IMG/VR virus record: IMGVR_UViG_3300045012_000235
Coordinates: 60,601-124,600 of that record
Source of the DNA: a virus
DNA: 64,000 bases
Strand: one strand, 5' to 3'
Every line of letters starts with the position of its first letter. The stretch's first letter is position 1. Below the pieces are notes generated by a model. It was not told the DNA's origin. It saw only the letters and a list, made by a program, of their open reading frames with translations, and searched no databases. The translations under genes and the position numbers were made by a program. Shown here piece after piece: positions 26,370 to 60,733 of the stretch.

Positions 26370-28142
26370 GTGAAGCTGCGACTTTCTCCCGACGTCACGC
26401 TCCCGACGGATGCCGTCACGCAAACGTTCGCCGTGCTCGGCAAGCGTGGCTCGGGCAAAACGAACACCGCCAGCGTGCTCGCCGAGCAGCTCATCGAGGC
26501 AGGGCTCCCCGTCGTGTACGTGGATCCCATCGGAGTGACGTGGGGGCTCCGGCACTCGCGCGACGGCAAGTCGCCGGGGCTGCCTGTCATCATCCTTGGT
26601 GGTGAGCACGCAGACGTACCGCTCGAGGAGACGGGCGGCGCGGTCATCGCCGACTTTGTGATTGAGCACCGGCAACCGGTGGTGCTCGACCTCGGTCTCT
26701 TCTCGAAGGGCGCGCAGCGGCGGTTCATGGTGGATTTCGCAGAGCGGCTCTACTTGAAGAACCGCGATGCGCTGCACGTCATGCTCGACGAATGCGACAC
26801 TTTTGTGCCCCAGCGCATCGACCACGGTGGAGAGCGACTCGTGGGCGCCATCAACGATCTCGTGAGAAAGGGTCGCGCGCGTGGGCTCGGCGTCACGCTC
26901 ATTAGTCAGCGGCCGGCACTCGTCTCGAAGGATGTTCTCACGCAGGTTGAGACACTCATTGCACATCGGATGACCGGACCGCAGGATCGCGACGCCATCG
27001 AGCGGTGGATCGAGCACAACGCCGATCGAGACGGTACCGATGTGTTGGCATCGCTTCAGACGCTTGGTGACGGGGACGCGTGGGTCTGGAGCCCGAGCTG
27101 GCTCAAGAAGATGGTCCGCACGCACATCAACCTGCGAGAGACGTTCGACTCGTCGGCGACGCCGAAGGCGGGTGCTCGAGTGACCGCGCCAAAGCACGCG
27201 GCCGAGGTGGACCTGGGCGAGCTCCGTGACAAGCTCGCGGCGACCATCGAGAAGGCGAAGGCCGACGATCCGAGGGTGCTACGGGGACGTGTTCAGGAAT
27301 TGGAGAAGCAGTTGAAGCGCGCGTTCGCCGCTAGCGAGGCGCCAGCCTTCTCCAAGACCGTGGAGGTCCCGATACTGTCGAAAGAGCAGGTGAGGCTGCT
27401 AGAAGACCTGCGCGGTGAAGTGGTAGGAATCCGCGCAGGTGCCATCGTCAAGCTCGACGATCGAGTCAGCGAGATGGTTCGGTTCTACGGAGACCTCAAG
27501 ACCGGTATGCTGGAGATGGCCGATCGGGTGGAAAAGCTGGTCGCGAAGCTCAGCGTCGAGGGGCACGTCGTCAACGCCTACGACCTCCGGTGGAGCAAGA
27601 AGAATCGGAAGGATCTCAAACCGCCACCGGCAGTAACTAACGGTGCAGCACATCGCCCGGTTGCCGCCGGGTCCGGCGAGCCGATGTCCGGAGGTCGCCG
27701 CCGCATTCTGCTCGCGCTTGCGCGCCACGGGGCATGCAGCAAGGGCAAGCTCGCCGTCCTGACGCGCTACGCCTCCAATGGCGGAGGGTTCAACAACAAC
27801 CTGAGTGCGCTCCGGACGGCGGGTCATATCGCTGGCAACGACCCGCTCGAGATCACCGACGACGGTTTCCGTGTGCTCGGTCGCTTTGATCCGTTGCCCG
27901 AGGATGCCGACGCTCTTTTCACGGAATGGATGCAGCACCCCGAACTGAATAGGTCGCACCGTGAAATCATGCGGACGCTCAAGGGATCGCTTGCGCCCAT
28001 GACAAAGGAAGAAATCGCCAGGCTCTGCGATCCGCCGTACGAGCCGGGAGGCGGCGGTTTCAACAACGCGCTCTCGCGCCTCCGCACGCTCGGCGTCATC
28101 GAGGGCAAGGGCGACATTCGGCTTGCGGAGCAGCTCCGATGA
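26370..28142 (+). CDS. HerA/DUF87-family ATPase with tandem C-terminal winged-helix-like repeats
   Basis: GKRGSGKT, MLDECDTFVPQ, RKGRARGLGVTLISQRP; duplicated GGGFNN.LS.LRT.G near the C-terminus. Confidence 0.85.
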   Translation: MKLRLSPDVTLPTDAVTQTFAVLGKRGSGKTNTASVLAEQLIEAGLPVVYVDPIGVTWGLRHSRDGKSPGLPVIILGGEHADVPLEETGGAVIADFVIEHRQPVVLDLGLFSKGAQRRFMVDFAERLYLKNRDALHVMLDECDTFVPQRIDHGGERLVGAINDLVRKGRARGLGVTLISQRPALVSKDVLTQVETLIAHRMTGPQDRDAIERWIEHNADRDGTDVLASLQTLGDGDAWVWSPSWLKKMVRTHINLRETFDSSATPKAGARVTAPKHAAEVDLGELRDKLAATIEKAKADDPRVLRGRVQELEKQLKRAFAASEAPAFSKTVEVPILSKEQVRLLEDLRGEVVGIRAGAIVKLDDRVSEMVRFYGDLKTGMLEMADRVEKLVAKLSVEGHVVNAYDLRWSKKNRKDLKPPPAVTNGAAHRPVAAGSGEPMSGGRRRILLALARHGACSKGKLAVLTRYASNGGGFNNNLSALRTAGHIAGNDPLEITDDGFRVLGRFDPLPEDADALFTEWMQHPELNRSHREIMRTLKGSLAPMTKEEIARLCDPPYEPGGGGFNNALSRLRTLGVIEGKGDIRLAEQLR

Positions 28143-38686: not shown

Positions 38687-39275
38687 TTTTACTCAGCAAT
38701 CAAAGGAGACGTGAAGTGATGGGAGTTGATGGCAGGCTGCTGGTATCGATGAGCGACAGGGAAAGGGCGCGAAAGTTCTTGGAACCCATCCTGACCTTCC
38801 GTAGAAGCCGAGTCTGGCATGATGCGGAGCTCGTGAAATGCCTCGCTGACCAATTCGCAGAGGTGCGACGGCAGGCGCTGAGCCGGCATCCTCAGTGCAC
38901 GTGCGCGGCCATCCAGAACGAGGACGACAGCCGGCACTTCCGCGAGTGCCCACTTCGCAAGGAACACGGTGGGCCTGATGGCGCCTGGGCCTCAGGTGGT
39001 GGGTCCAGGTAAAACTGCGCAAGGAGGCTTGAATGGTAACGGCGTGGCTCATCGTATTCGGTCTCTGCCTCTTGCTCGACATGCGCACGAACGATGGCTG
39101 CCTCTGCGGTGCGACCGCGTGGTGCCCGGTGCACAACCAGCCGTGAACGAAGTCCCAGGGGAGCCTCCCACGTCCCTACCTCGACAGGTGGCAGCAGAGG
39201 GCCGCGCTGGTCCGGCGACAACGGCCAGCCCAATACCTTGACGGTCGTTGACCGATCCGGATAGCATCTTCCTCC

Positions 39276-39683
39276 ATGCGGCGAACGATTCTTGCAGCGC
39301 TCTCTGTCGTCTTCGTTATGGGATGCGGTCCCTCGGTTTGGCAGCAGCTCGTTACCACCATCGAGACCGGGCTCGAGAACGGCACCACCCTCGCTCAGCT
39401 CGAGGCGATCGTCGTGCAGTTCTTCCCGCAGTTCGCGAACGACGCCGCGATCGTCGACTCGATCTTGCAGGCCGTCATTTCGCTCCTGCAGACGACCAAC
39501 GTGTTGCCTCCCACGGCCCAGGCGAATGCCAACGCTCTGCAGTCGCAGATTGGCGTGAAGCTCGCCGCCGCGAAGAAGACGGGGTGGGTGCTGCCGCCGG
39601 ATGCCGCGGACGTCATCGCAGGGATCGCGCAAGGTCACTCTCCGAGGCTCGTTGCGGCGATTCAGGGGGCGGTGACGCGATGA
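39276..39683 (+). CDS. Lipoprotein
   Basis: Signal peptide with lipobox, MRRTILAALSVVFVMG-C. Confidence 0.7.
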   Translation: MRRTILAALSVVFVMGCGPSVWQQLVTTIETGLENGTTLAQLEAIVVQFFPQFANDAAIVDSILQAVISLLQTTNVLPPTAQANANALQSQIGVKLAAAKKTGWVLPPDAADVIAGIAQGHSPRLVAAIQGAVTR

Positions 39684-40915
39684 CCCTCCGCTGCAGGCCG
39701 TACTACAAGCTCTCGAAGCGTTCGATCCACGAGCACATCAAGGCCCGCGCCGCCGGAAGCGGCCCCTGGACCGTTCCTGCGCTTTGCGCGTACTACGGCC
39801 TGCAGGCGGGCTCCCTTCCAGGTGGCGGAACCATCGGCATCCTCGAGCTCGGCGGCGGCTGGGTTGCGTCGGACATGACGACGTTCTTCGGCAACATCAA
39901 TCAGCCTGTGCCGTCCATTACGGACGTGTCGGTGGACGGCACGCAAAACGCGGGCGCGGCGGGCGGGGACGCGAGCGTCGAGGTTGCGCTCGACATTCAG
40001 GTGGCGGCTGCTGTCTACCAGTACCTGACGGGCAAGAAGGCGGTCGTGCGGATGTATTGGTCCCAAGGGATCGATACGGCGGCCATTGCGTCCAGCAAGG
40101 ACGGCTGCGCGGTGTGCTCGTGCTCCTGGGGCGACGACGAGCCGGCGTGGGGCGCGTCGGGGCTCGCTGAAATGCAGGCGGCGCTCGTGACCTGCACGGG
40201 GGCAGGCACCACGTTCTTCGCGGCCAGCGGGGACAACGACGGGGACGACAGCGACGGGACGGGCAAGCCGTCGGTCGATGCGCCCGCGAGCTGCACGAAC
40301 GCTGTCGCGTGCGGCGGAACCTCGACGCCGCAGTCCGGTCCGAGCGTCATCTGGAACAACAACCCGGGGAATGCGAACGGAGAGGGCACGGGCGGAGGCT
40401 ACAGCGGCACCTTCCCGTTCGCCGCATGGTGCACTGGTCCGACCGGAACAGGACGCATGGTGTCGGACGTGGCTTCGAACGCCGACCCCGACACAGGCTT
40501 CGAGATCGTTCAGGGTGGCCAGTCGCAAGTCGTCGGCGGCACTTCGGCAGCGGCGCCGTTCTGGGCGGGCGTCTTCGCCGCGCTTGGCGCGAAGGGGCAG
40601 GGCTTCGTCAACGCGAAGCTCTGGGGAGCCAAGAGCGACTTCACGGCGGTCACGAGCGGCACCAACGGGAGCTACCCGGCGGACGTGTGCTGTGGACTCG
40701 GGGTCCCGACTCAGGCCCTCTTGACCGCGTTGGCCGGTGCGGCAGCGCCCCCGGCGCCCCCGGCCCCGCCGAGCGGTTTGCTCAGCGCCGCCCAAGTCAT
40801 CGGCGTCCAGGCGGCCATCGACTCGGTGATCGATCCGGCGGATGCGCTCATCGAGAAGGTCGTCGTCGCGCCGGAGCTTCAGGCGGCCATTACGGCGCTC
40901 GGTCCGACATCGTGA
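39680..40915 (+). CDS. S53 (sedolisin/kumamolisin) family serine protease, catalytic domain
   Basis: IGILELGGG, EVALD (catalytic E/D), SWG, AASGDN (oxyanion D), GGTSAAAP (catalytic S); ATG overlaps the upstream stop. Confidence 0.88.
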   Translation: MTLRCRPYYKLSKRSIHEHIKARAAGSGPWTVPALCAYYGLQAGSLPGGGTIGILELGGGWVASDMTTFFGNINQPVPSITDVSVDGTQNAGAAGGDASVEVALDIQVAAAVYQYLTGKKAVVRMYWSQGIDTAAIASSKDGCAVCSCSWGDDEPAWGASGLAEMQAALVTCTGAGTTFFAASGDNDGDDSDGTGKPSVDAPASCTNAVACGGTSTPQSGPSVIWNNNPGNANGEGTGGGYSGTFPFAAWCTGPTGTGRMVSDVASNADPDTGFEIVQGGQSQVVGGTSAAAPFWAGVFAALGAKGQGFVNAKLWGAKSDFTAVTSGTNGSYPADVCCGLGVPTQALLTALAGAAAPPAPPAPPSGLLSAAQVIGVQAAIDSVIDPADALIEKVVVAPELQAAITALGPTS

Positions 40916-43878: not shown

Positions 43879-45807
43879 TTACAGCAGCGTGATCGGTTGC
43901 GAGACGACCGGTGCTCCCAGGATGAGTGACAACGTTCGCGCATAGAGACCGCTCAGCCTGGTAGGAAGCGGGTTCGACGCCAGCGTGCGCGGATTGACCA
44001 CCGTGGCGGTCGCATGAGACGTCGCTCCGGTGACGGTTTCGCTCCGCACGAAGCCGCTCTTGACCGATCCTGGATTGAAAGCAAGGGTCCCCGACTCGTC
44101 CATGCCGGGGTTGTCGTAGAGCACGGTGCCCGTGCCGCCGCTCTTCTGTCCGTTCACGGTCTCGCCCGGCGTGAACGGCCCGCCCGTCACGTCCACGTAC
44201 GTCAGCGCGGGGGCGGTTTGCTGCGGCAACGTGAACTCCGCGAGCAACGTCATGAGGTGCGCGTCATCCGGTGGCGCCGCCTGCGAGGGGGACACGAGAA
44301 ATGCCGAACTCACGACGGCGTCAGCTTCCTCGCTCACCGATCGTGCGGGACGGATGTTCGCGAAATCGTGGTGAGTCTCTGCTCCAGGGGCGATCTCCGG
44401 ATTCGATAGGCCCGTGTACGCCGTCGTCAGCTTGACGAACGTCGCGCTCACGGATGCGACCGAGTATTGCACGCCCGGTTGCGCGTCGAACTCGATCGTC
44501 GCTGAACCTGTCGCGGTCGTTGCTGCGGCCGACGTGCCACTGTATGGGGTCGTGAGGATGCCGATTGTGCCTGCGTCGATCGCGACGGCGAGCACGTACG
44601 TGACAGTGGGCTGCTCGGCGAAGACGATGCCGGTGCCCGCGGGGAGTGTTTGCGCGACGGAGAACACGATCTCTTCGTCGCCGTGAGTTACATCGACGGT
44701 GCCCGAGAGCGCCTCTCCTACGATGACGCCGATCTGGCTGACCGTCGTCAGCACGGTCGGCGACCCCTGATTGACCCAGAAGTCGCCGGCGAGCTGGGGC
44801 GCGCTGTTTTGCTGCTGCGCGAGCGCGAAGTAGCTCGGCGGCAGGTAGATGAGCGGCCGGGTGATCGTGAGCTGAGCGGCGTCGGTGAGATCCGGGAAGT
44901 CTGCGGGTGTCGCTTCGGAGGGAAGAGGTGGTAGGAGAGCCTCGAGCGCGGCGAGCGTGATTTGTCCAACGCTGTTCTCGAAAGCTCCGGTCTGGAAGAC
45001 GAAGCACTCGGTGATTTCGGCAACGTCTATGCTGCCCCCGGCGAGCGTGACCACGGCCGGGAATTTTCCCATCAACTTCGTGTGGACCGTGAATGGGCCC
45101 GCCCCGGTCGAGTCGAGGTAGGTGAGCGCCATGATCTGCGCGCCGCTGCCGGCCGGGATCGCGGGCGTTGTGTCGACGCCATCGGTGTCGAGGGTGCTTG
45201 TCGAGTAGAACGCGACGACCGCCGCGGGCGCGGGGAGGGTCACGGGCCGCAGCGTGTACCGGTTGATGGTCGTTTGCTCCAGCGTGTACGGGAGCGTCGG
45301 CGACGCAACCGGAGGTGCATGCTCAGGACCGGTCGGCCGGCATGGGAATGGCGGCGGAGCGGGTGGGGAGTCGACGCTCGTCATGTTGAGCGTCAGGGTG
45401 CGGGTCGCGACGGGCGCGGTCACTGTTCCGCCGCCCGTATACGCGCCGTTGCCCGTGCTACCGACGAGCGCGAAGCTGTCGCCGGTGAGGTCCGCGATTT
45501 CGAACGATCCGTTGGCGGCGGTGTTGCCGGTCGCGTCGGCGAGGGTTACGACCATGCCGTTCGCGAGCCCTACGGTGGATGCGACTCCTACGACGATCGG
45601 GCTTGCGTTCGTGGCGGTCAGGACCGCCTGCGAGTACGCCGCGGAGGCGTCGCTCGCGACGGTGAGTCCAAACGCTTGCCCGAGAACCGGGTCGGTCGTG
45701 TCGTCTGTGTACAAGGGGACCGCGGAGAGCTTCGCGGCGGCCTGCGTGGGCGTGTAGATCGAGCCGGACGTCGCGATGCTAAAAGCCAGGGCGAGCTGGT
45801 TTGCCAT
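43879..45807 (-). CDS. Large beta-rich virion surface protein (spike/receptor-binding candidate)
   Basis: 642 aa, Thr/Ala/Pro-rich, few basic residues; ATNASPIVV...GLANGMVV...GNTAANG...GNGAYTGGG resembles the E1-FCCH-like modules of phage structural proteins. Confidence 0.6.
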   Translation of the reverse strand: MANQLALAFSIATSGSIYTPTQAAAKLSAVPLYTDDTTDPVLGQAFGLTVASDASAAYSQAVLTATNASPIVVGVASTVGLANGMVVTLADATGNTAANGSFEIADLTGDSFALVGSTGNGAYTGGGTVTAPVATRTLTLNMTSVDSPPAPPPFPCRPTGPEHAPPVASPTLPYTLEQTTINRYTLRPVTLPAPAAVVAFYSTSTLDTDGVDTTPAIPAGSGAQIMALTYLDSTGAGPFTVHTKLMGKFPAVVTLAGGSIDVAEITECFVFQTGAFENSVGQITLAALEALLPPLPSEATPADFPDLTDAAQLTITRPLIYLPPSYFALAQQQNSAPQLAGDFWVNQGSPTVLTTVSQIGVIVGEALSGTVDVTHGDEEIVFSVAQTLPAGTGIVFAEQPTVTYVLAVAIDAGTIGILTTPYSGTSAAATTATGSATIEFDAQPGVQYSVASVSATFVKLTTAYTGLSNPEIAPGAETHHDFANIRPARSVSEEADAVVSSAFLVSPSQAAPPDDAHLMTLLAEFTLPQQTAPALTYVDVTGGPFTPGETVNGQKSGGTGTVLYDNPGMDESGTLAFNPGSVKSGFVRSETVTGATSHATATVVNPRTLASNPLPTRLSGLYARTLSLILGAPVVSQPITLL

Positions 45808-45945
45808 GTTCAGGGGAGGCTACCACGATCATGCGCGTCTTTCGTGGCGTAGAAGCCCGCCCGGCGACCCGCAAAGGATTTGCATCCAACAGGCATCACG
45901 TGGTAGACATTGATTGACAGCGAGCCACAAAGTGGGAGAAAGATC

Positions 45946-47739
45946 ATGTCCATTCGCGTCTTCAAGTACGGTCTGCTTGCGCCCACCACGAACGCCACCC
46001 TCGTGCGAGATCAACTCCGGCTCATGGGTCGGTACCGCAATGTTCTCACGGAGATCGAGTGCGCCCGGCGAGCTGCTCTGCGCCCAGTGCTTCGGGCGCA
46101 CGGGGACATTGCACAACTCGAGGCTGACGTGGGGCGGGCTCAAGCCGAATTGGACGCTGGACTCTTGGCGGTGCGCTCGGCCCGCGCGCAGACCCGCAGT
46201 CGGTCGGAAACTCAGGAGATGCGGGCGCGGGTCACGGCGGCTCGCGAAGTCCGGCGGCTCGCGAAGGGCGTGCTCGCTCAGGCCAGGCAAGCTCAGAAGA
46301 GCGATCCCGGTATCCTCGCCGCCAAGGATCGCATTCACGCCCGCGCTCTCGAGCTCACGAAATCCGCTCGGGAGCACTGCGGGGTCTACTGGGGCAGTTA
46401 CCTTCTTGTCGAGGACGCTGCAGGGAGTTCCTTCGAGAGCACTCCAATGTTCGACGGGACCGAGCCGTCCGATCCTCGGTTCGTGCGCTTTGATGGTCAG
46501 GGATCCGTCGGCGTGCAGATCCAGGGCGGCCGACCCGCGATTCAGCTCTTCGAGGAGAATACACTCTGCCGCATCGAACTGATCGAGGGGCGCCGCAATC
46601 CGGTCCTCCACCTGCGGGTGGGGTCGAAAGAGGACGGATCGCCGGTATGGGCAATTTTTCCGATGAAGATGCACCGGCCGTTTCCGCTGGGGAGCGTTGT
46701 CAAGAGAGTGACGGTTTCCATCCGGCGAATTGGCCCGCGCGAGCGATGGACCGTGCAATTCACGCTCGTCATTCCCGACGAGATCCGCGCTGCCATCAAC
46801 GATCGTAGGGTGGCGATTGACGTAGGATGGCGCCAGATGAGCGACGGCTCGGTTCGCGTGGCCTACCTCCGCGGGACGGACGGCTACGAGCACGACATGC
46901 GGCTACCGGCCCGGCTCGTCGAAGCCTTCGGACGGTCGGACGGTCTGCGCCGGGTTCGTGACAAGAACTTCAACGCCATTCGCCCGCAACTCGTTGCGTT
47001 CCTCGCGGCGAATCAGGTTCCGGCATGGCTGGTCAAGGCTACCGAGACGTTGCCGTACTGGCGGTCGGCCGGCCGGCTGGCTGCCCTCACTCGCAAGTGG
47101 GCTCAGAATCGCTTTCAGGGCGACGAGGCGGCCTACGACGCAATGGAGGCGTGGCGATACCACGATCACCACTTGTGGAGCTACGAATGTGATGAGCGAG
47201 CCAAGCATCTTGGGCATCGCAAGGACATCTACCGGGTCATGGCTCGGCAGCTCGCCAACAGGTACGAGCGACTCGTTCTGGAGGACTTTGATCTCCGGGA
47301 GGTTGCTGAGGTCCCGGCGCCCGACTCCGAGGAGCAGAACATTGCGGCGGCTCGCGCCAAACGTCAACGCATCGCAATCTCGGAGCTCCGCCTGTGCCTT
47401 GTGAATGCGTTCACGAAGATGCGCACGGACCACGTGTCTGCCGTGGACTCGACGCACATCTGCCACGTCTGCGGCTCGGTTGAAGAGTTTGATGCGGCCG
47501 TCAAGGTGAGCCACACGTGCTCTGGTTGTATGACGACGTGGGACCAGGATGACAACGCTTGCTATGTTCTCTTGGCTCGAAGCGAGCCGACGGGCGATGA
47601 CGAAACACCCGGGGGCGCTCGCGGGGAGGAAACTCCAACGATTATCGAGACTCGGTGGAGGCGGGCGGCTCGGTTGGCGGCTGAGAGGACGGCCAGAAAT
47701 GAGATCGCTCGCAAACCGGAGGGCAATGCTGCAGAATGA
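45946..47739 (+). CDS. cas12m: Type V CRISPR effector, Cas12m (V-M/V-U1)-like, ~597 aa
   Basis: GGGAG RBS before ATG 45946; long REC coiled coil; YWGSY, RFDGQGSVGVQIQ, MHRP, RuvC-I AIDVGWR, LGHRKDIYR, RuvC-II LVLED, zinc finger CHVC...CSGC, RuvC-III WDQDDNA; CRISPR array starts 21 bp after the stop. Subtype assigned from remembered motifs. Confidence 0.82.
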   Translation: MSIRVFKYGLLAPTTNATLVRDQLRLMGRYRNVLTEIECARRAALRPVLRAHGDIAQLEADVGRAQAELDAGLLAVRSARAQTRSRSETQEMRARVTAAREVRRLAKGVLAQARQAQKSDPGILAAKDRIHARALELTKSAREHCGVYWGSYLLVEDAAGSSFESTPMFDGTEPSDPRFVRFDGQGSVGVQIQGGRPAIQLFEENTLCRIELIEGRRNPVLHLRVGSKEDGSPVWAIFPMKMHRPFPLGSVVKRVTVSIRRIGPRERWTVQFTLVIPDEIRAAINDRRVAIDVGWRQMSDGSVRVAYLRGTDGYEHDMRLPARLVEAFGRSDGLRRVRDKNFNAIRPQLVAFLAANQVPAWLVKATETLPYWRSAGRLAALTRKWAQNRFQGDEAAYDAMEAWRYHDHHLWSYECDERAKHLGHRKDIYRVMARQLANRYERLVLEDFDLREVAEVPAPDSEEQNIAAARAKRQRIAISELRLCLVNAFTKMRTDHVSAVDSTHICHVCGSVEEFDAAVKVSHTCSGCMTTWDQDDNACYVLLARSEPTGDDETPGGARGEETPTIIETRWRRAARLAAERTARNEIARKPEGNAAE

Positions 47740-47760
47740 AAAGGAGTGTTTGGGTGACCT
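47582..47760 (+). promoter_or_regulatory. CRISPR leader overlapping the 3' end of the effector ORF
   Basis: GCGAGC (47582)/GCTCGC (47617) inverted pair, a second CGCTCGC at 47706, and an A-rich tract before repeat 1; the degenerate repeat is at the far end of the array. Confidence 0.55.
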
Positions 47761-49159
47761 GTGGCAGAGGGAACGCGACCCCTTCAAGCTCGCGACGGAT
47801 CGGCCCAGGCCGTATGATTCGCGAAGTCCACGTGGCAGAGGGAACGCGACCCCTTCAAGCTCGCGACGTCGATCGTCGCGAGCTTGCCCGCCAGCTCGAC
47901 GTCGTGGCAGAGGGAACGCGACCCCTTCAAGCTCGCGACTGGTGGTGGGCCGTCGCTACTCGGTTGGCTGGGCGCACGTGGCAGAGGGAACGCGACCCCT
48001 TCAAGCTCGCGACCGAGCAAAGGACGCTCTCTGCATCATCGACGACTTGTGGCAGAGGGAACGCGACTCCTTCAAGCTCGCGACTCATGGTGAGACGGGC
48101 GGTCTGCGCCAGCCAAGCGCAGCGTGGCAGAGGGAACGCGACTCCTTCAAGCTCGCGACCAGGCTTCGGTCGCACGGGCTCGATTGCGTCGCAGAGGTGG
48201 CAGAGGGAACGCGACCCCTTCAAGCTCGCGACCGGGGTACTGTGACAGACGACAAGGACGTTGACGAACCGGTGGCAGAGGGAACGCGACCCCTTCAAGC
48301 TCGCGACGAGAGCCTCACGTAGATGGCGACGCGGGTCGGAAGCGCGGCAGAGGGAACGCGACTCCTTGCAAGCTCGCGACTTGAACGTGAGGACGCCCCA
48401 CTGCTGGCTGCCGCCCGGTGGCAGAGGGAACGCGACTCCTTCAAGCTCGCGACACCGTCGCCGTCGTTGCGCCGCCTAGCATGGCGTCCGGTGGCAGAGG
48501 GAACGCGACTCCTTCAAGCTCGCGACATCGCTGTAAGAATCTCGACCCGTCGCAGGCGCCCGGGTGGCAGAGGGAACGCGACTCCTTCAAGCTCGCGACG
48601 GGGAAACCGCTGGCGGGACGCTTTTGCCCCGTCTCGTGGCAGAGGGAACGCGACTCCTTCAAGCTCGCGACCGCATCAATCACGACGTGCCGCCGCCGCT
48701 CTCGCGCGTGGCAGAGGGAACGCGACTCCTTCAAGCTCGCGACATGGCGGTCGACGTGGAAAAGTCGCGCGTTACCCTGTGGCAGAGGGAACGCGACCCC
48801 TTCAAGCTCGCGACGTGCCGTAGGCAGATAGGTAGTTGCAGGCACCAGTTGTGGCAGAGGGAACGCGACTCCTTCAAGCTCGCGACTTCCGGCACGCCTT
48901 ACAGCTGCCCTGGGCGCGCTCGTGGCAGAGGGAACGCGACCCCTTCAAGCTCGCGACAGTCAACGGCGTGGCCGAACGAAGTGGCTGCGTTGCTCGTGGC
49001 AGAGGGAACGCGACTCCTTCAAGCTCGCGACGCCGTTACGCGCACCCACCCCTCACGCGCGTAGTTCGTGGCAGAGGGAACGCGACTCCTTCAAGCTCGC
49101 GACGACGAGAACATGAATGGTTCGTGGCAGGGGGAACGCGACTCCTTCAAGCTCGCGTA
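47761..49159 (+). CRISPR. CRISPR array: 20 repeats (36 nt, GTGGCAGAGGGAACGCGACYCCTTCAAGCTCGCGAC), 19 spacers
   Basis: Repeats start at 47761, 47832, 47904, 47978, 48049, 48124, 48197, 48272, 48344 (variant, 37 nt), 48418, 48491, 48564, 48636, 48708, 48779, 48851, 48922, 48996, 49068 and 49124 (degenerate). Spacers are 35-39 nt except the last (20 nt). Confidence 0.98.
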
Positions 49160-49206
49160 GAGGGAATGTTCTTCTGCAGGACAATGATGCGCTATCCTCC
49201 CAGGGC

Positions 49207-49611
49207 ATGGCATCCTCCATCGCTGAAGCTTTCAAACAAGCCATCCTCACGAAGCGACCTGTCCGTCAAGATCCAAACCTTGCGCTTGTCGCGCACTGCA
49301 TCGCGCAAGCGTTGGCGCTGACGCCCACCGAGCTCGCCAAGGTGACCGCCGGCGTGCGCTCCGGGATCGCGAGCGGCGCCCTCAAGGTGACGATCCCGCA
49401 CGACGGGACCGGGCGAATCGATGAGACCAAGCTGCCGCCGCTGCCCAAGCTGCCGAAGGCGACGATTCATCCTCAGCGACCCGGGGCAGCTGTCAGCGAG
49501 CGCCTGGTCTCCCGGCTCGTGTCGACGTGCGCGACCTTGACCGCGAAGGAGCTCACGCTCGTGACGCAGGGCGTGCGGGCGGGGTTGCTCGCTAGGGGCG
49601 CGAAGCCCTAG
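49207..49611 (+). CDS. Hypothetical protein with an internal duplication, directly after the array
   Basis: LTPTELAKVTAGVRSGIASGA and LTAKELTLVTQGVRAGLLARGA. Confidence 0.6.
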   Translation: MASSIAEAFKQAILTKRPVRQDPNLALVAHCIAQALALTPTELAKVTAGVRSGIASGALKVTIPHDGTGRIDETKLPPLPKLPKATIHPQRPGAAVSERLVSRLVSTCATLTAKELTLVTQGVRAGLLARGAKP

Positions 49612-49855
49612 GTCGAGATCTCGGGCGGTAGAGGTGGCGATTCACGATGAGAGGAGCCGCCGCTCGAGGTTGCCGGCTCTCCATGTATTTCACTTCAGTG
49701 ACGGGGCCTGCAGGAGCAGCAGCGGCCGGGGCGACCTGGGTGACGTGAGGCAACTCGGCGGCCTGGGGCGCTTCGTGGTCCGGTGTAAGCCGCTTCTTGA
49801 GCGCGGAGAGCGTATCGTGGATACTTGTTTGAATGGACATGCGTGATGACTTTGC

Positions 49856-50683
49856 ATGCCGTGTGCCGCCATGTATGAGGTGAAACAGGCCGCCATAGCG
49901 CGCGCCATAGACGTTCTTCGAGGGGGACCGCTGACGGCTGCAGCGTTCGCGGTGAAGATGTGGCCGGACCGGGTCACGGGTCGGACTCCCGGTCAGCACT
50001 CGAAGATGGGGCACTCGTTTCTTCGTCGTCTCGGCGAATTGAACTACATCTCGCGCATCGGCGACCTGTGGACGGTAAGCGTTTTTGACGGCCGTACGGC
50101 CGGTGGACAGGCTGTGCACGGTGAGACAAACGGCTATCCATCAGCCAACGGATACCCTGTTGGACCACCGCCTGACGGCCATTCAACGGCGAATGGGTAC
50201 CCCGTGCAACATTCCACCGGGCAGGCAACGGGTCAGGCCATCGGACATGTGACCGAACAAGCAGAGAGACAACGGCTTCATCGGCTGGTCCAGCAGGCGG
50301 GTGAACTGCTACCGACGGTGACGCACGACGCGGTGTTCGGTGACCTCCGGATTCGATCGATCGCGGTCGACGCCGCGCTCGTCGAGGCGTGCGCGATCGT
50401 CGTGCTTTCCGGTCACCAAGCGAACGTCTATCCGCCCTGTTCGGCGCCCTCCATGCTCGTCGGTCTCTCGCCGGCGGAAGCGGCGCGAGTCCTTCTTTTG
50501 CGCTGGAATCAGTCGGGGCAGGCCCCCGAGCTGCCGCGAGCCGGCGCGTGGATCCGCGTCCCCGACGGGATCATCGCTTGCCCCGGCTTCTGGCGTCCCG
50601 CAGGCGCGTCCGTGGGTTGGATCGACCCAGAAGACGTCAGGGCGCGGGTCCAGCGCCAGAGGGCCGCTGCGGGGCTCGCGTAG
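49856..50683 (+). CDS. Hypothetical protein with a winged-helix-like N-terminus and NGYP-repeat linker
   Basis: GPLTAAAFAVKMWP...FLRRLGELNYISR; three NGYP repeats. Confidence 0.5.
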   Translation: MPCAAMYEVKQAAIARAIDVLRGGPLTAAAFAVKMWPDRVTGRTPGQHSKMGHSFLRRLGELNYISRIGDLWTVSVFDGRTAGGQAVHGETNGYPSANGYPVGPPPDGHSTANGYPVQHSTGQATGQAIGHVTEQAERQRLHRLVQQAGELLPTVTHDAVFGDLRIRSIAVDAALVEACAIVVLSGHQANVYPPCSAPSMLVGLSPAEAARVLLLRWNQSGQAPELPRAGAWIRVPDGIIACPGFWRPAGASVGWIDPEDVRARVQRQRAAAGLA

Positions 50684-50774
50684 GGGTCTGGAGTGGCGGC
50701 GGGGAAGGGTCTAAACGAGCGGATTTGACTCCCAACCTTATCAGTCGAAGGTGCGCGGCCGTTTCGGCGTTGCG

Positions 50775-50802
50775 GAGCACGAAAAGGGGCATTATCGTGG
50801 GC
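50775..50802. promoter_or_regulatory. Candidate tyrosine-recombinase core site (11-6-11)
   Basis: gagcacgaaaa-ggggca-ttatcgtgggc; arms match at 8/11 positions as an inverted repeat; ends 10 bp before the recombinase ATG. Confidence 0.45.
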
Positions 50803-50812
50803 AAACCACAGC

Positions 50813-51916
50813 ATGACTCGACCACTTTTGCCTACACGGGAGACGTATGCGGCGGTCGTCCTGCCCGGGATCCCGCTCCCTGCTATTGCGGTCCCGCATA
50901 GTGATGAGCCGCCCGCGGAGCGAATCTTCAAGCACTGGCTGGACGGTCGCGACCCAGCGACGATCGCTGGCTACCGGGGGGACCTAGCCGATTTGGGCGC
51001 CTTCATGCGGGACTCGAGCGGGAAGCCTCTCGTCCACCCGTCCGCTCGTCGGAGCCCTAAGGAGTCTGCGGCCGCCGCTAGGACGGCGATCGAGGCTCTC
51101 GTGTCGCTGGGCAATACGCAGGGGCCCACGATGGCGAATGCTTTCGTGCTGGCGTACCGAGCGCACCTTATCGGCGAGAAGGTTGCCCCCAGGACCGTCA
51201 ACCGTCGGCTGGCCGCGATTCGGTCGATGCTCAAGATGGCGCGATCGATCGGTTTCATCACCTGGACGGTCGAGATCGAGAGCATGAAGGTGGAGAGCGT
51301 CAAGGACACCCGTGGGCCCGGCCGGGACGCGGTTGCGATCATGATGGGAGCCCTGGTCAAGCGAGCGCATGGCGGCGACCGACACGCGTTCAGGGACCTC
51401 GCCATCTTGCGTCTCCTCTACGATCTGGGGCTCCGGCGGGGGGAGGTTGCCTCGCTCGATCTTGAGCATTGGGAGCCGACACGTCGGCGGCTCATGGTGT
51501 GGGGGAAGAAGCGTGCGGAGCGTGAACCCATCGACGATGTCCCGACCGAGACCGCGCGTGCCCTCGATGTGTGGATCAAGGTCCGGGGTGAAGAACCAGG
51601 GGCGCTCTTCATGTCGTTCGACCGGCGCATGAAAGGTCATCGACTGACCGGCTGGAGTATCTGGAGCACGATCACTGAGCTGGCCACCAGCCTCGGTTTG
51701 AACGCTCGGCCACACGGAGTCCGGCACACGGCCATCACCGAGGTGCTCAACGAGAGTCGGGGCGACGTCCGGGCCGCGCAACGGTTTTCCAGGCACAAGC
51801 GGCTCGAGACCTTGCAGGTGTACGACGACAACCGAGAGAACCTCGGAGGGCAGCTCGCTGCGAAGATCGCAGCGGACATGCCGGGACTCGACGAGAAGGA
51901 GGAGATTTCACGATGA
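50813..51916 (+). CDS. Tyrosine recombinase (XerC/D-like integrase/resolvase)
   Basis: SAM-like N-domain (TVNRRLAAIRS); catalytic R (LGLRRGE), K (GKK), HxxR (PHGVRH), H (SRH) and Y (LQVYD). Confidence 0.92.
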   Translation: MTRPLLPTRETYAAVVLPGIPLPAIAVPHSDEPPAERIFKHWLDGRDPATIAGYRGDLADLGAFMRDSSGKPLVHPSARRSPKESAAAARTAIEALVSLGNTQGPTMANAFVLAYRAHLIGEKVAPRTVNRRLAAIRSMLKMARSIGFITWTVEIESMKVESVKDTRGPGRDAVAIMMGALVKRAHGGDRHAFRDLAILRLLYDLGLRRGEVASLDLEHWEPTRRRLMVWGKKRAEREPIDDVPTETARALDVWIKVRGEEPGALFMSFDRRMKGHRLTGWSIWSTITELATSLGLNARPHGVRHTAITEVLNESRGDVRAAQRFSRHKRLETLQVYDDNRENLGGQLAAKIAADMPGLDEKEEISR

Positions 51917-52392
51917 CCGTGAAGATGAGTCAACTGAGAATTACCAGGGACATGCTCGCAGCGTGGGCAGCCGAATGCGGGCTGGATCTCGTACCGAAGC
52001 CGCCGTACGTGCTCGAAGATCCGAGTCAAGGGATGGTTGACGAAGCCATGAGATCAGCGCAGGAAGACGATCGAATGAGAATGGTCGATGGGATCGCCAA
52101 AGTCTACTTCCTTCAGGAAAACGGAACTGGAGCCATCAAGATCGGGACGTCGAAGCATCTGAAGAAGCGTATCGACGAGCTGACTCGAGAACTCCCTTCG
52201 GAGTCCACTCTCCTAGCGACCACGGACGGATGGCGCGAGACGGAGTGGGTACTACAGCGCCGCTTCGTCCACGCTCGCATCCGCGGCGAGTGGTTCCGCC
52301 CGGTGCCCGAGTTGCTCGAGTACATCGCAGGCTTGAAGGCGGCAGAGTCGAGTTCCGCGCAGCCCAAGTTGGCGCAGGTGTCCAATGGCTAA
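51913..52392 (+). CDS. GIY-YIG/T5orf172-domain protein
   Basis: VYFLQENGTGAIKIGTS...RIDEL...E..LQRRF...RIRGEWF. Confidence 0.8.
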   Translation: MTVKMSQLRITRDMLAAWAAECGLDLVPKPPYVLEDPSQGMVDEAMRSAQEDDRMRMVDGIAKVYFLQENGTGAIKIGTSKHLKKRIDELTRELPSESTLLATTDGWRETEWVLQRRFVHARIRGEWFRPVPELLEYIAGLKAAESSSAQPKLAQVSNG

Positions 52393-56924: not shown

Positions 56925-57758
56925 TTAGCCCGGGCTCGAAGGCTTCTTCTTGTGCGTGAGGGCCGCAACCGTTCCGCCGACCACCAGCGCCGCCGCAGCA
57001 CCGATGCCGATCTTCATGGGCAAAGACAACGTCGACAGGCAAAGGGCGGTGCCGGGGTACGGCGTCGGGAAGTCGGCCGCATGCTGCTTGGTGACCGCGA
57101 TGAGCGCACACAGGGTTGCGCGGTCGAGTGTGCCGTCGGTTGGAAGTGATCCGCCCGCATTCGCGTTGTACCAGCCCTGGAAGCACGCGACCGCTGCGGG
57201 CGGCGCCTTGGTCGGATCCGCGGGCCAGCTCGCGCAGGGCTTGTTGCCGCTCTTGAGGATGAGCGCGTTGAGCTGCGTCAGGGTGGCCAGGATCCACTGC
57301 AACTCGACGTCAGCGAGCTTGGACCAGATCCCGGGTGCGTTCTTGGCCGCCAGCGCGGCGTATCCCGCTTTGGAGATGCCTGGATGGTTCGGGTCTTCTT
57401 CGTCCGCTCCGATTGTGCCGCCCCGACCGACGCCCCCGATGCCCGAGCTCATCATCCGGTTGCCGATGCAGAGCGAGTTCTGCGTCCACTGCGGCACGAT
57501 GCGTCCGGCGCTGTCGGTGGCTTTGTCGAGAACGTTGTCCTTCCACCAGCAACCGGCCGTACGGATGTCGCGGTCGGTCGGTCCCTGGATCGGCACGTCC
57601 TCGACCCAGTCACCGTAGGTGCCTTCGTCGTGCATGACCTGAGCGGCCTGCCGGGGAGTCAGCGATCCCGGTTCGATCACGCATGGTTTGGGGACCAGGA
57701 TACGCGGGAAGCTGCTGCATCCGCCTCCGCACCCGCCGACTCCAGCTTGCTTGGTCAT
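56925..57758 (-). CDS. Peptidoglycan-binding-like protein with a C-terminal TM anchor
   Basis: GGAGAGG RBS before ATG 57758; FQGWYN...LPTDGTLDRATLCAL; KIGIGAAAALVVGGTVAAL-KKK. Confidence 0.6.
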   Translation of the reverse strand: MTKQAGVGGCGGGCSSFPRILVPKPCVIEPGSLTPRQAAQVMHDEGTYGDWVEDVPIQGPTDRDIRTAGCWWKDNVLDKATDSAGRIVPQWTQNSLCIGNRMMSSGIGGVGRGGTIGADEEDPNHPGISKAGYAALAAKNAPGIWSKLADVELQWILATLTQLNALILKSGNKPCASWPADPTKAPPAAVACFQGWYNANAGGSLPTDGTLDRATLCALIAVTKQHAADFPTPYPGTALCLSTLSLPMKIGIGAAAALVVGGTVAALTHKKKPSSPG

Positions 57759-58750
57759 GGCACATCCTCTCCGAGGTTCTCGTCGAACACGAGCGACCCC
57801 GCAATGCGGCCGTACTGCGCGGACCCGCAAAACGAGACCAGGAACTGATCCTCCGGGCTGAGCGCCGCGAGCTGGCAGGCGGTCAAGCCTATCGAAGCGC
57901 ACGGGTTGGTCAGCGGGTCGTTTTGCCGAACGCTGGCGAAGAGGGCGACATCGCACGGCAGTGGGATGGGGATGTCGAGCGTTTGCTCGAGTTGGGATTG
58001 CCGCCAGCGGTATCGGAGGTCGTGCATGTTGCCGAGGCTGACGCCACCGACGGGTTTGCCCCAGGGGCGGCCGCCGTTGGGCGGCTTGTACGCGGTCGGC
58101 GCGAACTGCGGGCCCGCGATGGTCTCGTAGAGCATGCACGGCCCGTAGCTGTCGCGGAACACGAGGCTGTCCGCGTTCTGGACGTTGCGCGTCACCATGA
58201 ACGTCTTCGGAATCAGCATGACATGCCAACTGATGCTGCCGTCGGGCGGATGCCAGAGAGGGCTCGTGATCTCTTTGCGGAAGATGGTGTTCGGAGCGCC
58301 ATCCACACCGGCGACTGTCGCGATGAGCTCCGCGTATTGCCGGATGCCCGTGAGCCGCACCCCTTGTTCGCCGGAGTTGAATTGCTCGCGGGCGAGCAGG
58401 AAAAGGTAGCGAAACTGCGACGGCGATTGCCCGGCCGTGACGAGTGATCCAGTCGGTGTCGCGGGAACGAGAACGCCGGTGCCTACCGGTTGACCGTACG
58501 GGTCGCTCCCGATGAGCGAGACGGACGGGTCGAGCGTGGCGGGGACGATCTCGTGGCGACCGGACAAGAGGCGCGTGCGGATTCCGTAGCCGACTCCGTT
58601 GGGGTCGCGTTGCAGATCGATCAGCCTTCGCTCGAGGTCACCGCGTCGTCCCCTCGTCGGCGGCGTCGCGGCAAAGGAATCCGTTCCCCCGGGCGTTCCG
58701 ACGCCGGCGGTCGGCAGCTCGATCAGCTTCGCTGTCTGGTCGCCGGGCAC
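57755..58750 (-). CDS. Putative single-jelly-roll capsid/vertex protein
   Basis: Alternating beta-strand pattern RYLFLLAREQF, VRLTGIRQY, ISWHVMLI, LDIPIPLPCDVALFASV, RIAGSL; same order of elements as the two neighbours. Confidence 0.45.
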   Translation of the reverse strand: MPGDQTAKLIELPTAGVGTPGGTDSFAATPPTRGRRGDLERRLIDLQRDPNGVGYGIRTRLLSGRHEIVPATLDPSVSLIGSDPYGQPVGTGVLVPATPTGSLVTAGQSPSQFRYLFLLAREQFNSGEQGVRLTGIRQYAELIATVAGVDGAPNTIFRKEITSPLWHPPDGSISWHVMLIPKTFMVTRNVQNADSLVFRDSYGPCMLYETIAGPQFAPTAYKPPNGGRPWGKPVGGVSLGNMHDLRYRWRQSQLEQTLDIPIPLPCDVALFASVRQNDPLTNPCASIGLTACQLAALSPEDQFLVSFCGSAQYGRIAGSLVFDENLGEDVP

Positions 58751-58759
58751 GTGGTTCCT

Positions 58760-59356
58760 TTATGGCTGGAGCAGGACAGCGAGATCCGGACTCTCGATTC
58801 CGAGCTTGCGCAGACGGCAGCGCGCATCGCTATCGCTCATGTCGTCCATGACTTTGTCCAAAAATTGCCACCCCTGGAAAAGGATGTGCACGTCGAACGG
58901 CACGCTCACCGGCGTTTGGAAAAGGATTGCGGCGACCTTGACGTTGCTCTGCTTGTAGAGCGGCCACCCGTTCGGCCACATCATCGACATCACGTCGAAC
59001 AGGTTCGCGAGGTCGATCGGAGGATCGCTGATGGCGTACTTTGGTCCGCCGTAGACATCCACCTTCACACCGACGCCGGTCTGGCTCTTGAGCTGCGAGA
59101 AGTACAGACTCTGGAACGGCGACCCAGGGAACGAGTTCTGCTGGAACAGCGTGAACGACACCTTCTCGATGATGGTGTCCGAGACGAGGTTGTTGTCGAA
59201 GCTCGCGACGATGGCGGGAGCATCAACCGCACTCGACGTGAACTGGATCGGGATGTCCGCGACGAACGGAACCCGGGGGACGCCTGCAACCATCCCATAC
59301 GCGATCCGTGGAGCGTACAAAGCCAAGTTGCGGATGTCGTGGTCTCGCGGTTGCAT
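58760..59356 (-). CDS. Putative small single-jelly-roll capsid protein
   Basis: DTIIEKVSF, VGVKVDV, ISDPPIDLANLF, WPLYKQSNVKV, FDVHILFQGWQF. Confidence 0.55.
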   Translation of the reverse strand: MQPRDHDIRNLALYAPRIAYGMVAGVPRVPFVADIPIQFTSSAVDAPAIVASFDNNLVSDTIIEKVSFTLFQQNSFPGSPFQSLYFSQLKSQTGVGVKVDVYGGPKYAISDPPIDLANLFDVMSMMWPNGWPLYKQSNVKVAAILFQTPVSVPFDVHILFQGWQFLDKVMDDMSDSDARCRLRKLGIESPDLAVLLQP

Positions 59357-59384
59357 GAGCTTTCTCCGGGGATCAGCGTACCTC

Positions 59385-59425
59385 AAAAAGAAAACGGGCG
59401 ACGCGACATCTCGTCACGCCGCCCG
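59385..59425 (-). terminator. Intrinsic terminator after the putative major capsid gene
   Basis: Minus strand CGGGCGGCGTGAC-GAGAT-GTCGCGTCGCCCG (13-bp stem with two G-U) followed by TTTTCTTTTT. Confidence 0.8.
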
Positions 59426-59449: not shown

Positions 59450-60733
59450 TTAGGCCGCGTGGCTCTTCATCATGCTCGGGTACCTTTCCGAGCAGTACGC
59501 CTTCCAGCCGCCGGGCATCTCCCAGCCCTTGATCTTGATGCCGAGCTTGAAGATGCCGCCCTTGAAGATCTGGCGGTTGACGTTGACCGACTGCGAGACG
59601 AGCGCCGGAGCCGAATCGAGCGTCTGCTCCAGCATGACCGACGGTGCGAGGGCGACCGTGGTGGTGACGTCGCTGACGTTGACGTCCGGCACGACGTTCG
59701 TTCCGAACGGCTCGTTGTCGATCGTCATCGCCTCGATCATCTGCGCCTGGTGCACGGCGTCCTGCGCGATGAAGATCATCCCGATGGGGATGCCGCGCTC
59801 GAGGAAGCAGGGCGACTCGACGGGGCGGTACATCTGGCCCCGGCAACCGTACCCCTGCCACCGGAGACCGCCCCAGGTGACCGGCGCGAGGTCGAAGTCG
59901 CGCGTCGCGTGGAAGACGCCGTAGTTGTCACCGGTGACGAGCGGGAACGCTCCCGTCACGCTGCCGACCCGCCGGAAGTTGACGGGCAGGAAGATCGTCG
60001 CGGAGTCCTTCGCGCGGTACTGCGCGTTGACCAGGGCGACGAACTCGACGATGGGCAGCTCGGACGTGCCGCTCGCTTCGGCGTCCGCGAAGGAACCGAA
60101 GTACGAGATGTCGGCCGCGAGCTCGTTGAGCACGAGTTCGCGCTGGCTCGTCTTCCACTGGAACTGGTACGCGTTGATGAAGTTCCAGCCTGCGCGCCAG
60201 GTCGCCGCACCCCATTCGAAGACGGCGGGAGTGATGACCTGATCGGCCGCTGCGGGCACGACATCGGTACCCATCGCGCCGTTGTTGAGGTCATTGGTCG
60301 TGTACACGTCGGGCGACGGCGGGGGCGCAACGGTGTTCGCCGGCGCCGTCCAGGCGTTGCCGATCGTGGAGAACGACGACGGCTCGCAGAAGACGTGCAC
60401 GCCGATGCCCTGCGCGAGGATGTCCGTCTGCAGGATGCCGTTGATGAGGAACGTGCTGTCGATGCTCGCGACGCCGGGGACCGCGGACGAACCCGAGAGC
60501 GGGTTGACCGTGTCGCCGAACGTTGTCTGCGCTTCCTCCGCCGACAGGGGGAGCGGAACCGTCCAGACCACTTCCTCGACCACGGGGACGTTTCCGAACC
60601 CGCAGCGCAGGCACTTCTCCGCGGCCTTCTCGTCGCCGGGCGGAGCGCCCAGGCCGAAGGGTACGCGCATCACCTTCTCGCGCGACTCGCCGCCGTACCG
60701 GATGGACTTCTTGTTCAGGAGATTCTTGGCCAT
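59450..60733 (-). CDS. Putative major capsid protein (jelly-roll type with insertions)
   Basis: 427 aa, highly biased codons, AAAGGG RBS, followed by a terminator; DILAQGIGVHV, YQFQWKT, YRPVESPCFLERGIPIGMIF and FKLGIKIKGWEM parallel the 198-aa neighbour. Confidence 0.55.
   Translation of the reverse strand: MAKNLLNKKSIRYGGESREKVMRVPFGLGAPPGDEKAAEKCLRCGFGNVPVVEEVVWTVPLPLSAEEAQTTFGDTVNPLSGSSAVPGVASIDSTFLINGILQTDILAQGIGVHVFCEPSSFSTIGNAWTAPANTVAPPPSPDVYTTNDLNNGAMGTDVVPAAADQVITPAVFEWGAATWRAGWNFINAYQFQWKTSQRELVLNELAADISYFGSFADAEASGTSELPIVEFVALVNAQYRAKDSATIFLPVNFRRVGSVTGAFPLVTGDNYGVFHATRDFDLAPVTWGGLRWQGYGCRGQMYRPVESPCFLERGIPIGMIFIAQDAVHQAQMIEAMTIDNEPFGTNVVPDVNVSDVTTTVALAPSVMLEQTLDSAPALVSQSVNVNRQIFKGGIFKLGIKIKGWEMPGGWKAYCSERYPSMMKSHAA

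Follow-up and report, generated by a model that had tools for sequence, protein, structure and literature searches.

A cas12m gene followed directly by a CRISPR array

We identified a gene for the CRISPR effector Cas12m, with a CRISPR array directly behind it, in IMG/VR virus record IMGVR_UViG_3300045012_000235, a one-contig record of 124.6 kb. The stretch analysed here (the window, 64,000 nt) comprises bases 60601-124600 of that record. The open reading frame (ORF) at 45910..47739(+) is open for 609 amino acids (aa) from a TTG codon; an ATG at 45946, with a Shine-Dalgarno-like sequence just upstream, gives a protein of 597 aa plus stop, and this start agrees with the N-termini of homologues in the alignment consensus. 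A preliminary description, made from the sequence alone, had reported a ~597-aa ORF with an array 21 bp downstream, as is found here (Table 1), and had called the pair a virus-encoded, minimal Cas12m-like CRISPR system. Sequence, fold, repeat structure and locus layout all back the Cas12m assignment. We read the locus as a type V-M module that is complete, probably works and silences its targets by binding, on a circularly assembled soil element of 124.6 kb filed as a virus, and give this reading a probability of about 0.78.

The identity of the protein as a full-length Cas12m (type V-M, formerly V-U1) is secure. The PADLOC Cas12u1 profile matches at E 3e-96 over its full length (residues 1-546 on profile positions 1-530 of 533). 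Sequence matches in the Protein Data Bank (PDB) are all Cas12m proteins: 23vw_A (E 5.9e-60, 207 bits), MmCas12m2 (8hio/8hhl, E 1.2e-26), 'UnCas12m4a' (23vu, E 6.8e-21) and GoCas12m (8pm4, E 4.3e-20). The nearest solved relative, 23vw_A, has 577 aa and D/E/D at the RuvC columns. An AlphaFold2 model with 43 homologues as input (predicted local distance difference test score, pLDDT, 87.3; predicted template modelling score 0.75) matched MmCas12m2 (8hhl_A) and GoCas12m (8pm4_A) in Foldseek with a template modelling (TM) score of 0.74 over ~600 columns, the whole chain, at 21-23% identity. The next families (Cas12f, TnpB and other Cas12) reached at most TM 0.44. The model has a ~150-residue helical insertion between RuvC-I and RuvC-II, as in GoCas12m and MmCas12m, and, judging from the whole-chain match, its four N-terminal helices would be the counterpart of the Arg-rich coiled-coil 'Roof' or REC2 insertion of solved Cas12m proteins (PMC11013384 and PMC10442227, both cited throughout from the parts of their text available). 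The zinc-finger cysteines C509 and C525 are invariant in a homologue alignment (A1), and C506 and C528 nearly so.

The profile match places the protein in Cas12m and not in TnpB. In a FastTree tree its clade has four members, the other three being 77% (P0002), 67% (P0003) and 60% (P0004) identical to it; a metagenome scan with P0001 returned only relatives about 40% identical (6 loci). What the preliminary description had stated of MmCas12m, namely about 600 aa, no trans-activating CRISPR RNA (tracrRNA), an H-D-D triad and silencing by binding, agrees with PMC10442227.

Repeat structure is shared by the whole family

The repeat reads GTGGCAGAGGGAACGCGAC[C/T]CCTTCAAGCTCGCGAC, 36 nt ending in GAC. 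Eighteen of the 20 copies are exact or differ only by C or T at repeat position 20, which along the copies reads CCCCTTCCTTTTTTCTCTTT, the two variants being interleaved and not in blocks. The 19 spacers are unique, 18 of them 35-39 nt long and the last 20 nt, and Tandem Repeats Finder scores over the array range from 232 to 568. A search of both strands of the window for further repeat copies with up to 9 substitutions found none outside the array, and a covariance model of the repeat detected 18 strong and 2 weak copies in the array and nothing beyond chance in the rest of the genome. From the degenerate distal copy and the 21-bp junction, the cas-proximal end would be the young one, with gene and array read together. 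Such a tight junction is typical of the family: among 46 related loci the median gap between gene and array is 31 bp, and 25 of the 46 have at most 40 bp.

The preliminary description had seen two interleaved stems in the repeat. They lie at repeat columns 7-11/20-24 and 14-18/30-34 (structure ......(((((..[[[[[.))))).....]]]]]..), and covariation shows them to be real and common to the whole family. For this we aligned, ungapped, one repeat from each of 34 related loci and both variants from the window (36 repeats). Stem cells were paired in 85.3% of cases as compared to 33-45% when the 3' partners were slid by 1-3 columns, and 73 cells were changed on both sides as compared to 25 ± 5 in shuffles, with 9 of the 10 pairs changing on both sides. 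In the second helix, which forms the pseudoknot, 95.6% of cells are paired and covariation is seen at each of the five pairs. Between the two variants of the window, the C/T change replaces a G-C pair by G-U and is pairing-neutral. Counted from the 3' end, the pairs are (-28..-26)/(-15..-17) and (-23..-19)/(-3..-7), the same register as that given, in the part of the source available, for the published CRISPR RNA (crRNA) of PmCas12m, (-28..-26)/(-15..-17) and (-23..-20)/(-3..-6); the MmCas12m2 crRNA matches with a small shift (PMC10442227). The minimum free energy fold of a single repeat is a different, nested hairpin (z -0.94) and is uninformative for the pseudoknot.

Table 1. Features of the cas12m locus and of the borders of its slot, in window positions.
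Feature	Position	Strand	Basis or remark
Left slot border, 642-aa gene of no known family	43885..45811	-	blastn 74-77% to L050:1285-2995
Shine-Dalgarno-like GGGAGA	45934..45939	+	6 nt 5' of ATG; read directly
cas12m gene, type V-M / V-U1 effector (597 aa + stop)	45946..47739	+	Profile, sequence, fold
Long helical REC insertion (H17-50, H55-83, H90-117, H121-144), predicted	45994..46377	+	Model secondary structure
RuvC-I Asp292 (AIDVGW)	46819..46821	+	Alignment column; D in 96/120 homologues
RuvC-II Glu446 (LVLEDF)	47281..47283	+	E in 103/120 homologues; invariant in alignment A1
Zinc finger / TNB CxxC...CxxC (C506, C509, C525, C528)	47461..47529	+	Conserved cysteines
RuvC-III Asp535 (WDQDDNA)	47548..47550	+	Alignment column; D in 115/120 homologues
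Gap from stop codon to first repeat, 21 bp, no room for a separate leader	47740..47760	+	Read from sequence
CRISPR array, 20 repeats of 36 nt + 19 spacers	47761..49159	+	Repeat search, covariance model
Aberrant 37-nt repeat (1-nt insertion, first T -> C)	48344..48380	+	Covariance model 17.4 bits vs ~30 for others
Short 20-nt last spacer and degenerate terminal repeat (3 mismatches, 49124-49159)	49104..49159	+	Old, cas-distal end
Right slot border, part of 164-aa ORF	49277..49587	+	blastn 76.7% to L050:9758-10068

A minimal module and its probable mode of action

The absence of cas1, cas2 and cas4, first noted for the surroundings of the locus, extends to the whole 124,600-bp record, which has no match to the Pfam models of Cas1 (PF01867), Cas2 (PF09827) or Cas4 (PF01930). 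A PD-(D/E)XK nuclease at 11965-13011 is not a Cas4 match; its matches are to PF12705 and phage exonuclease PHROGs. Nor is there a tracrRNA-like anti-repeat, in agreement with the earlier account: the best in silico match to the repeat in the rest of the genome is 12 nt, the region 44000-51000 has no Rfam match, and the covariance model finds only the array. Without adaptation genes, new spacers must be supplied in trans by Cas1-Cas2 of a host, or arise by array recombination or by exchange of the whole cassette. A simple promoter and terminator scan returned 0 sites.

The steps by which the module would act follow those of characterised relatives. The cas12m gene and the array would be read as one transcript, since the gap between them is only 21 bp. 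Cas12m itself would then cut the precursor crRNA within the repeats, without a tracrRNA, to leave a crRNA in which about 33 nt of repeat (stem and pseudoknot) precede the first 17-20 nt of a spacer. Cas12m with its crRNA would find a double-stranded DNA (dsDNA) target flanked by a protospacer adjacent motif (PAM), form an R-loop and stay bound, blocking transcription or replication of the target without cutting it, while the D-E-D residues would most likely hold the displaced strand via Mg2+ without hydrolysis. The likely use, and the least supported part of this scheme, is to interfere with rival mobile elements that share the host. Use against competing elements, which the preliminary description had also proposed, is plausible and is how V-M systems borne by mobile elements are read in the available part of a 2024 review (PMC11656645).

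The carrier is probably a virus

The first 127 bases of the record recur at its end, the IMG/VR listing gives a virus with direct terminal repeats and a CheckV completeness of 100, and soil metagenomes make up most of the public runs with the locus, 5 runs having at least 0.65 of its sampled words. PHROG matches reveal genes for replication and recombination like those of phages: PrimPol, two helicases (one Dda-like), a Sak4-like protein and an exonuclease. A HerA/FtsK-type ATPase (26370-28142, +) matches the PHROG 'terminase large subunit' at E 5e-18. We speak of the carrier as a probable virus, and of the earlier term 'virus-encoded' as probably right, a conclusion that rests mainly on the IMG/VR label. 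No hallmark gene confirms that label.

The carrier might instead be a large plasmid or another non-viral element misfiled in IMG/VR, and the module the usual V-M of plasmid competition. We hold this to be unlikely, though well within reason. Type V-M is strongly enriched on plasmids, and encoded by some prophages, in the survey given by the available text of PMC11656645, and the element bears ParB and is assembled as a circle. Several results weigh against a virus in the same way. The HK97 capsid family (PF05065) has no match in the record, and the presumed virion genes at 52.6-63.8 kb match no Pfam or PHROG family. Among 50 other Cas12m-bearing IMG/VR records (G001-G050), none matches Phage_capsid (PF05065) or TerL_ATPase (PF03354), so that these records are either unusual viruses or in some cases not viruses. 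For novel soil viruses, however, a test with two Pfam families is thin, and against a plasmid there stand the IMG/VR entry, the phage-type genes, the terminase match of the ATPase and the lack of any match to VirB4 (PF03135) in the record.

Among the presumed structural genes the one that looks best expressed encodes a 427-aa protein (59450-60733, -; GC content at third codon positions, GC3, 0.93), next to genes at 58760-59386 and 57755-58750, with homologues in 176 clusters at 50% identity. Its model is a confident beta-sandwich (pLDDT 85.7), which speaks against a plasmid. Support from known capsids is weak and counts on the other side: VIA-align scores to jelly-roll folds do not exceed Z 5.8, the weak matches include the capsid proteins of SPV1, PRD1 (P3), HHIV-2, HCIV-1, FLiP and P23-77, and sugar-binding modules score alike. 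Vertical jelly-roll capsids from tailless membrane-containing viruses are among these matches. A Foldseek search of the model against PDB and BFVD returned nothing at E 0.001 or better, and the ESM Atlas nothing usable.

Other features of the element were noted. A tyrosine integrase gene lies at 50813-51916, and directly after it a gene (51913-52392, +) whose product of 159 aa has a T5orf172 / MUG113 (GIY-YIG-like) domain. Homologues of the HerA/FtsK-type ATPase occur in 2 of the 50 Cas12m-bearing records, at 86% identity in G044 (residues 3-95 of the window's protein only) and at 39% in G032. ARAGORN found no tRNA or tmRNA on the 124.6-kb record, and a search for the helicase in phages, made for a hint of the host, returned phages whose hosts belong to many phyla.

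An intact RuvC triad is the family norm

The three acidic RuvC positions singled out in the preliminary description, D292, E446 and D535, align with the family columns of RuvC I, II and III. D-E-D is also the majority state. Among 120 listed homologues, the window's protein included, 91 have D-E-D, 7 N-E-D, 7 H-D-D, 3 N-D-D and 12 other states, and D-E-D occurs in 34 of 58 IMG/VR Cas12m loci and in 18 of 24 loci from genome assemblies. Groups with D-E-D enclose the H-D-D, N-E-D and N-D-D forms in the FastTree tree, which makes D-E-D probably the older state. Four Cas12m clades were defined by Wu et al. 2022 (quoted in PMC10442227), with states HEK/HQK, HDD, DED/NED and DED/DND/NED. D-E-D is therefore already a named clade type, that of clades 3 and 4, and the protein described here is assignable to either of the two.

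Published assays indicate that a D-E-D triad does not entail cutting. In the available text of PMC11013384 (Bigelyte et al. 2024), eight Cas12m proteins were assayed (four D-E-D, two H-D-D and two N-D-D); none cleaved dsDNA and 6 of the 8 showed PAM-dependent DNA binding. Purified D-E-D MsCas12m from Meiothermus silvanus showed no DNA cleavage, single-stranded DNA included, and no RNA or collateral cleavage. Its D274A mutant kept precursor crRNA processing, which is RuvC-independent and uses no tracrRNA (PMC11013384). Reversion of the H-D-D of MmCas12m2 to D-E-D did not restore cutting (PMC10442227). Because D-E-D is normal in the family and the assayed D-E-D proteins do not cut, an intact triad is not evidence of a nuclease in Cas12m. 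On these grounds we find the earlier suggestion of a nuclease-competent or intermediate lineage, and with it a nuclease reading of the intact triad, not supported.

Stated in full, that reading would make the protein a working RNA-guided nuclease that cuts, nicks or acts in collateral fashion, or else a half-way stage from a TnpB-like ancestor to a binding-only Cas12m. We judge it improbable. The triad and the CxxC...CxxC zinc finger are present and conserved, D-E-D is probably the older state, and the available text of PMC10442227 proposed that D-E-D clades (3 and 4) might hydrolyse DNA. Two of the eight assayed proteins showed no binding in the assay (PMC11013384). All assayed Cas12m proteins lie outside the four-member clade of the window's protein and the assayed D-E-D orthologues are distant from it, the best solved match being at 207 bits and MmCas12m2 and GoCas12m at 21-23% identity. 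That D, E and D are so strongly conserved means that the site is needed for something, a role that these data do not give. All of this tells against silencing by binding alone. On the other side, apart from the assays, two features that the available texts link to tight binding, the family's long coiled coil in REC and the helical insertion in RuvC, are present in the model, and the closest solved D-E-D relative, 23vw_A, entered the PDB under the name 'CRISPR-associated DNA-binding protein Cas12m'. That this clade in particular keeps a working D-E-D RuvC and cuts or nicks its targets, unlike every assayed Cas12m, we think hardly likely. If true, it would provide a 597-aa, tracrRNA-free, self-processing nuclease, and loss of cutting would be clade-specific and not family-wide. 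The survey in PMC11013384 covered 134 variants with IMG/VR among the sources searched, and may list relatives of the protein described here.

Spacer targets and maintenance of the module

A protospacer was not found for any spacer in the element's own genome, in the sibling element G044 described below, in 93 fetched loci, in INPHARED, in PLSDB or, for spacers 1-4, in IMG/VR, a result that weighs against a working module. The IMG/VR scans covered exact 24-mers of spacers 1-4 of the 19 and returned 0 matches in each of four scans. With blastn-short, the best match of the 19 spacers to their own genome (array masked) was 15 nt and to G044 14 nt, and the best match of the G044 spacers to this genome was 16 nt; neither array targets the other sibling. 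The 93 loci gave one 28/30 match, of spacer 2 (47868-47903) to L082:11491-11520, inside a small ORF of a Tessaracoccus metagenome-assembled genome contig that itself bears a distant Cas12m and an array. This match may reflect a conserved gene motif rather than a protospacer and is too isolated to interpret. INPHARED phages yielded 10 weak records (best E 0.03), some of them with matches that run across a repeat-spacer border; no plasmid in PLSDB matched, and the 50 Cas12m-bearing IMG/VR genomes gave a best per-genome E of 0.015 with matches of 16-39 nt.

The module could be a decaying relic, its array out of use and its gene kept by chance, a reading that we consider very improbable. The missing targets and adaptation genes would fit it, as would the one repeat with an insertion, the degenerate last repeat and spacer, and a public contig with the junctions 47760/48272 and 48417/49068 at repeat borders, which leave 3 repeats and may result from assembly collapse. 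In live arrays, however, degeneration of the distal repeat is normal, and 18 of the 20 repeats are perfect apart from the pairing-neutral C/T. The 597-codon frame is intact and every family-invariant residue is present. A strain from a different study carries the gene with 17 differences over 1.98 kb; 12 of these are listed, 8 synonymous and 4 nonsynonymous. Divergence is higher in its right flank, at 23 differences over 326 bp. From these substitutions the gene looks maintained. The same layout recurs elsewhere, with an array just downstream of the gene in 42 of 58 viral Cas12m loci (by our own detector). In one rhizosphere RNA library, contigs cover parts of cas12m at 95-99% identity. This is a weak hint of transcription; DNA carry-over is possible, which lessens its value for a working module.

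The protein could be read as a TnpB of an IS200/IS605 transposon instead of a CRISPR effector, but this can be dismissed: the NCBIfam TnpB matches are weak (E 0.018 and 0.11; NF040570 at 14.3 bits against a cut-off of 100, NF038281 at 11.7 against 425) and the Pfam Cas12f1-like TNB match (PF07282, residues 494-540, E 0.004) is likewise below cut-off, whereas the Cas12u1 profile matches over its full length, an array lies next to the gene, Foldseek gives TM 0.31-0.42 (query length) to the TnpB structures 8h1j, 8iaz and 8exa as compared to 0.74 to Cas12m, and the model has the long REC insertion that TnpB lacks.

A cassette slot shared with a sibling element

IMG/VR record G044 (117,319 bp, completeness 100) is a sibling of the element. 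About 30% of the genome studied here aligns to it at a mean identity of 69%, and the two copies of the 427-aa protein are 87% identical. In G044 (locus L050) homologues of window 43879-45807 and 49117-49611 enclose a slot whose content differs: a PHROG-1735 gene of 693 aa that the window lacks, a small ORF, a Cas12m and an array with a different repeat. This Cas12m has 685 aa and an N-E-D triad, is 27% identical to the one in the window and belongs to a distant clade. Neither the 642-aa gene at the left border nor the 164-aa ORF at the right border has a Pfam or PHROG match. The two elements resemble each other much more closely in the flanks than in the cassettes, and the simplest reading is that one whole cassette has replaced another at a fixed slot. 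The cassette swap between siblings is a modest new point of this locus, and it points to whole-cassette exchange as a renewal route for a CRISPR module that cannot acquire spacers itself.

The G044 array (reverse strand, ~39008-40428 in that orientation) is messy, with several degenerate repeats. Its spacers 4 and 12 are nearly identical, and it has long inserts, the first 92 nt of one of which recur exactly elsewhere in the G044 genome.

Comparison with known systems

The Cas12m family is characterised, has solved structures and is in use for base and epigenome editing. The D-E-D Cas12m proteins (MsCas12m, PDB 23vw) are most like the one described here: they share about 600 aa, the D/E/D triad, CxxC...CxxC, the REC coiled coil, the lack of a tracrRNA and of adaptation genes, a 36-nt GAC-ending repeat with stem and pseudoknot, and an array behind the gene. 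The window's protein differs in being distant in sequence (207 bits to 23vw_A), in forming its own four-member clade and in its virus-filed 124.6-kb carrier. MmCas12m2 (8HHL, 8HIO) and GoCas12m (8PM4) share the fold (TM 0.74), crRNA architecture and locus layout, and differ in their H-D-D triad, in identity (21-23%) and in being encoded in Actinomycetota; the mode of action proposed here follows their silencing by binding. TnpB and Cas12f share the RuvC and zinc-finger core; they lack the REC coiled coil, need long guide RNAs and reach TM 0.31-0.44.

Virus- or prophage-borne Cas12m is already in print (PMC11656645, in the part available; bioRxiv 10.64898/2026.09.14.751636). The bioRxiv preprint describes MvCas12m in myxophage MV-1 as the first phage Cas12m, a protein of 610 aa with D305/E463/D555 and 8 spacers, no adaptation genes and no targets found. 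Our locus L066 (JADZFZ010000476.1) fits MV-1 (given as GCA_020854145_1-476) exactly, with 610 aa and 9 repeats. Like the module described here, MvCas12m is virus-borne and D-E-D, with an adjacent array and without cas1/cas2/cas4, tracrRNA or a known protospacer. It differs in identity (~40%), in lying on a neighbouring branch and not in the same clade, and in its 8 spacers as compared to 19. Its carrier is a 40.7-kb contig of a predicted temperate phage as compared to 124.6 kb here, and we saw no shared virion gene. The preprint infers nuclease activity from the triad alone, and the published assays (PMC11013384, as available) argue against this; the 'intact triad' argument is unsafe for Cas12m wherever it is made.

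Loci with Cas12m relatives numbered 59 in a degenerate-pattern scan of IMG/VR. Of the 50 Cas12m-bearing records checked, 18 have a completeness of at least 90% and none matches Cas1. Among 50,697 GenBank phage records there was one Cas12m match, in Virus Rctr197k (KX853510.1; Caudoviricetes, 197 kb). Its Cas12m homologue (33% identity over 92% of the window's protein) has, as here, a CRISPR region downstream, annotated over 1.5 kb and 34 bp away; unlike here, the gene is annotated only as 'similar to transposase' (L103 = KX853510.1 108480-118171). Literature naming this virus, in the parts available, deals with other subjects. The claim of a first phage Cas12m understates the picture because of the 59 IMG/VR loci, 18 of the 50 records checked being near complete, and of this unrecognised 197-kb GenBank virus. 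The locus described here adds one more Cas12m to a known family, in which a Cas12m gene and an array without adaptation genes recur on virus-filed records.

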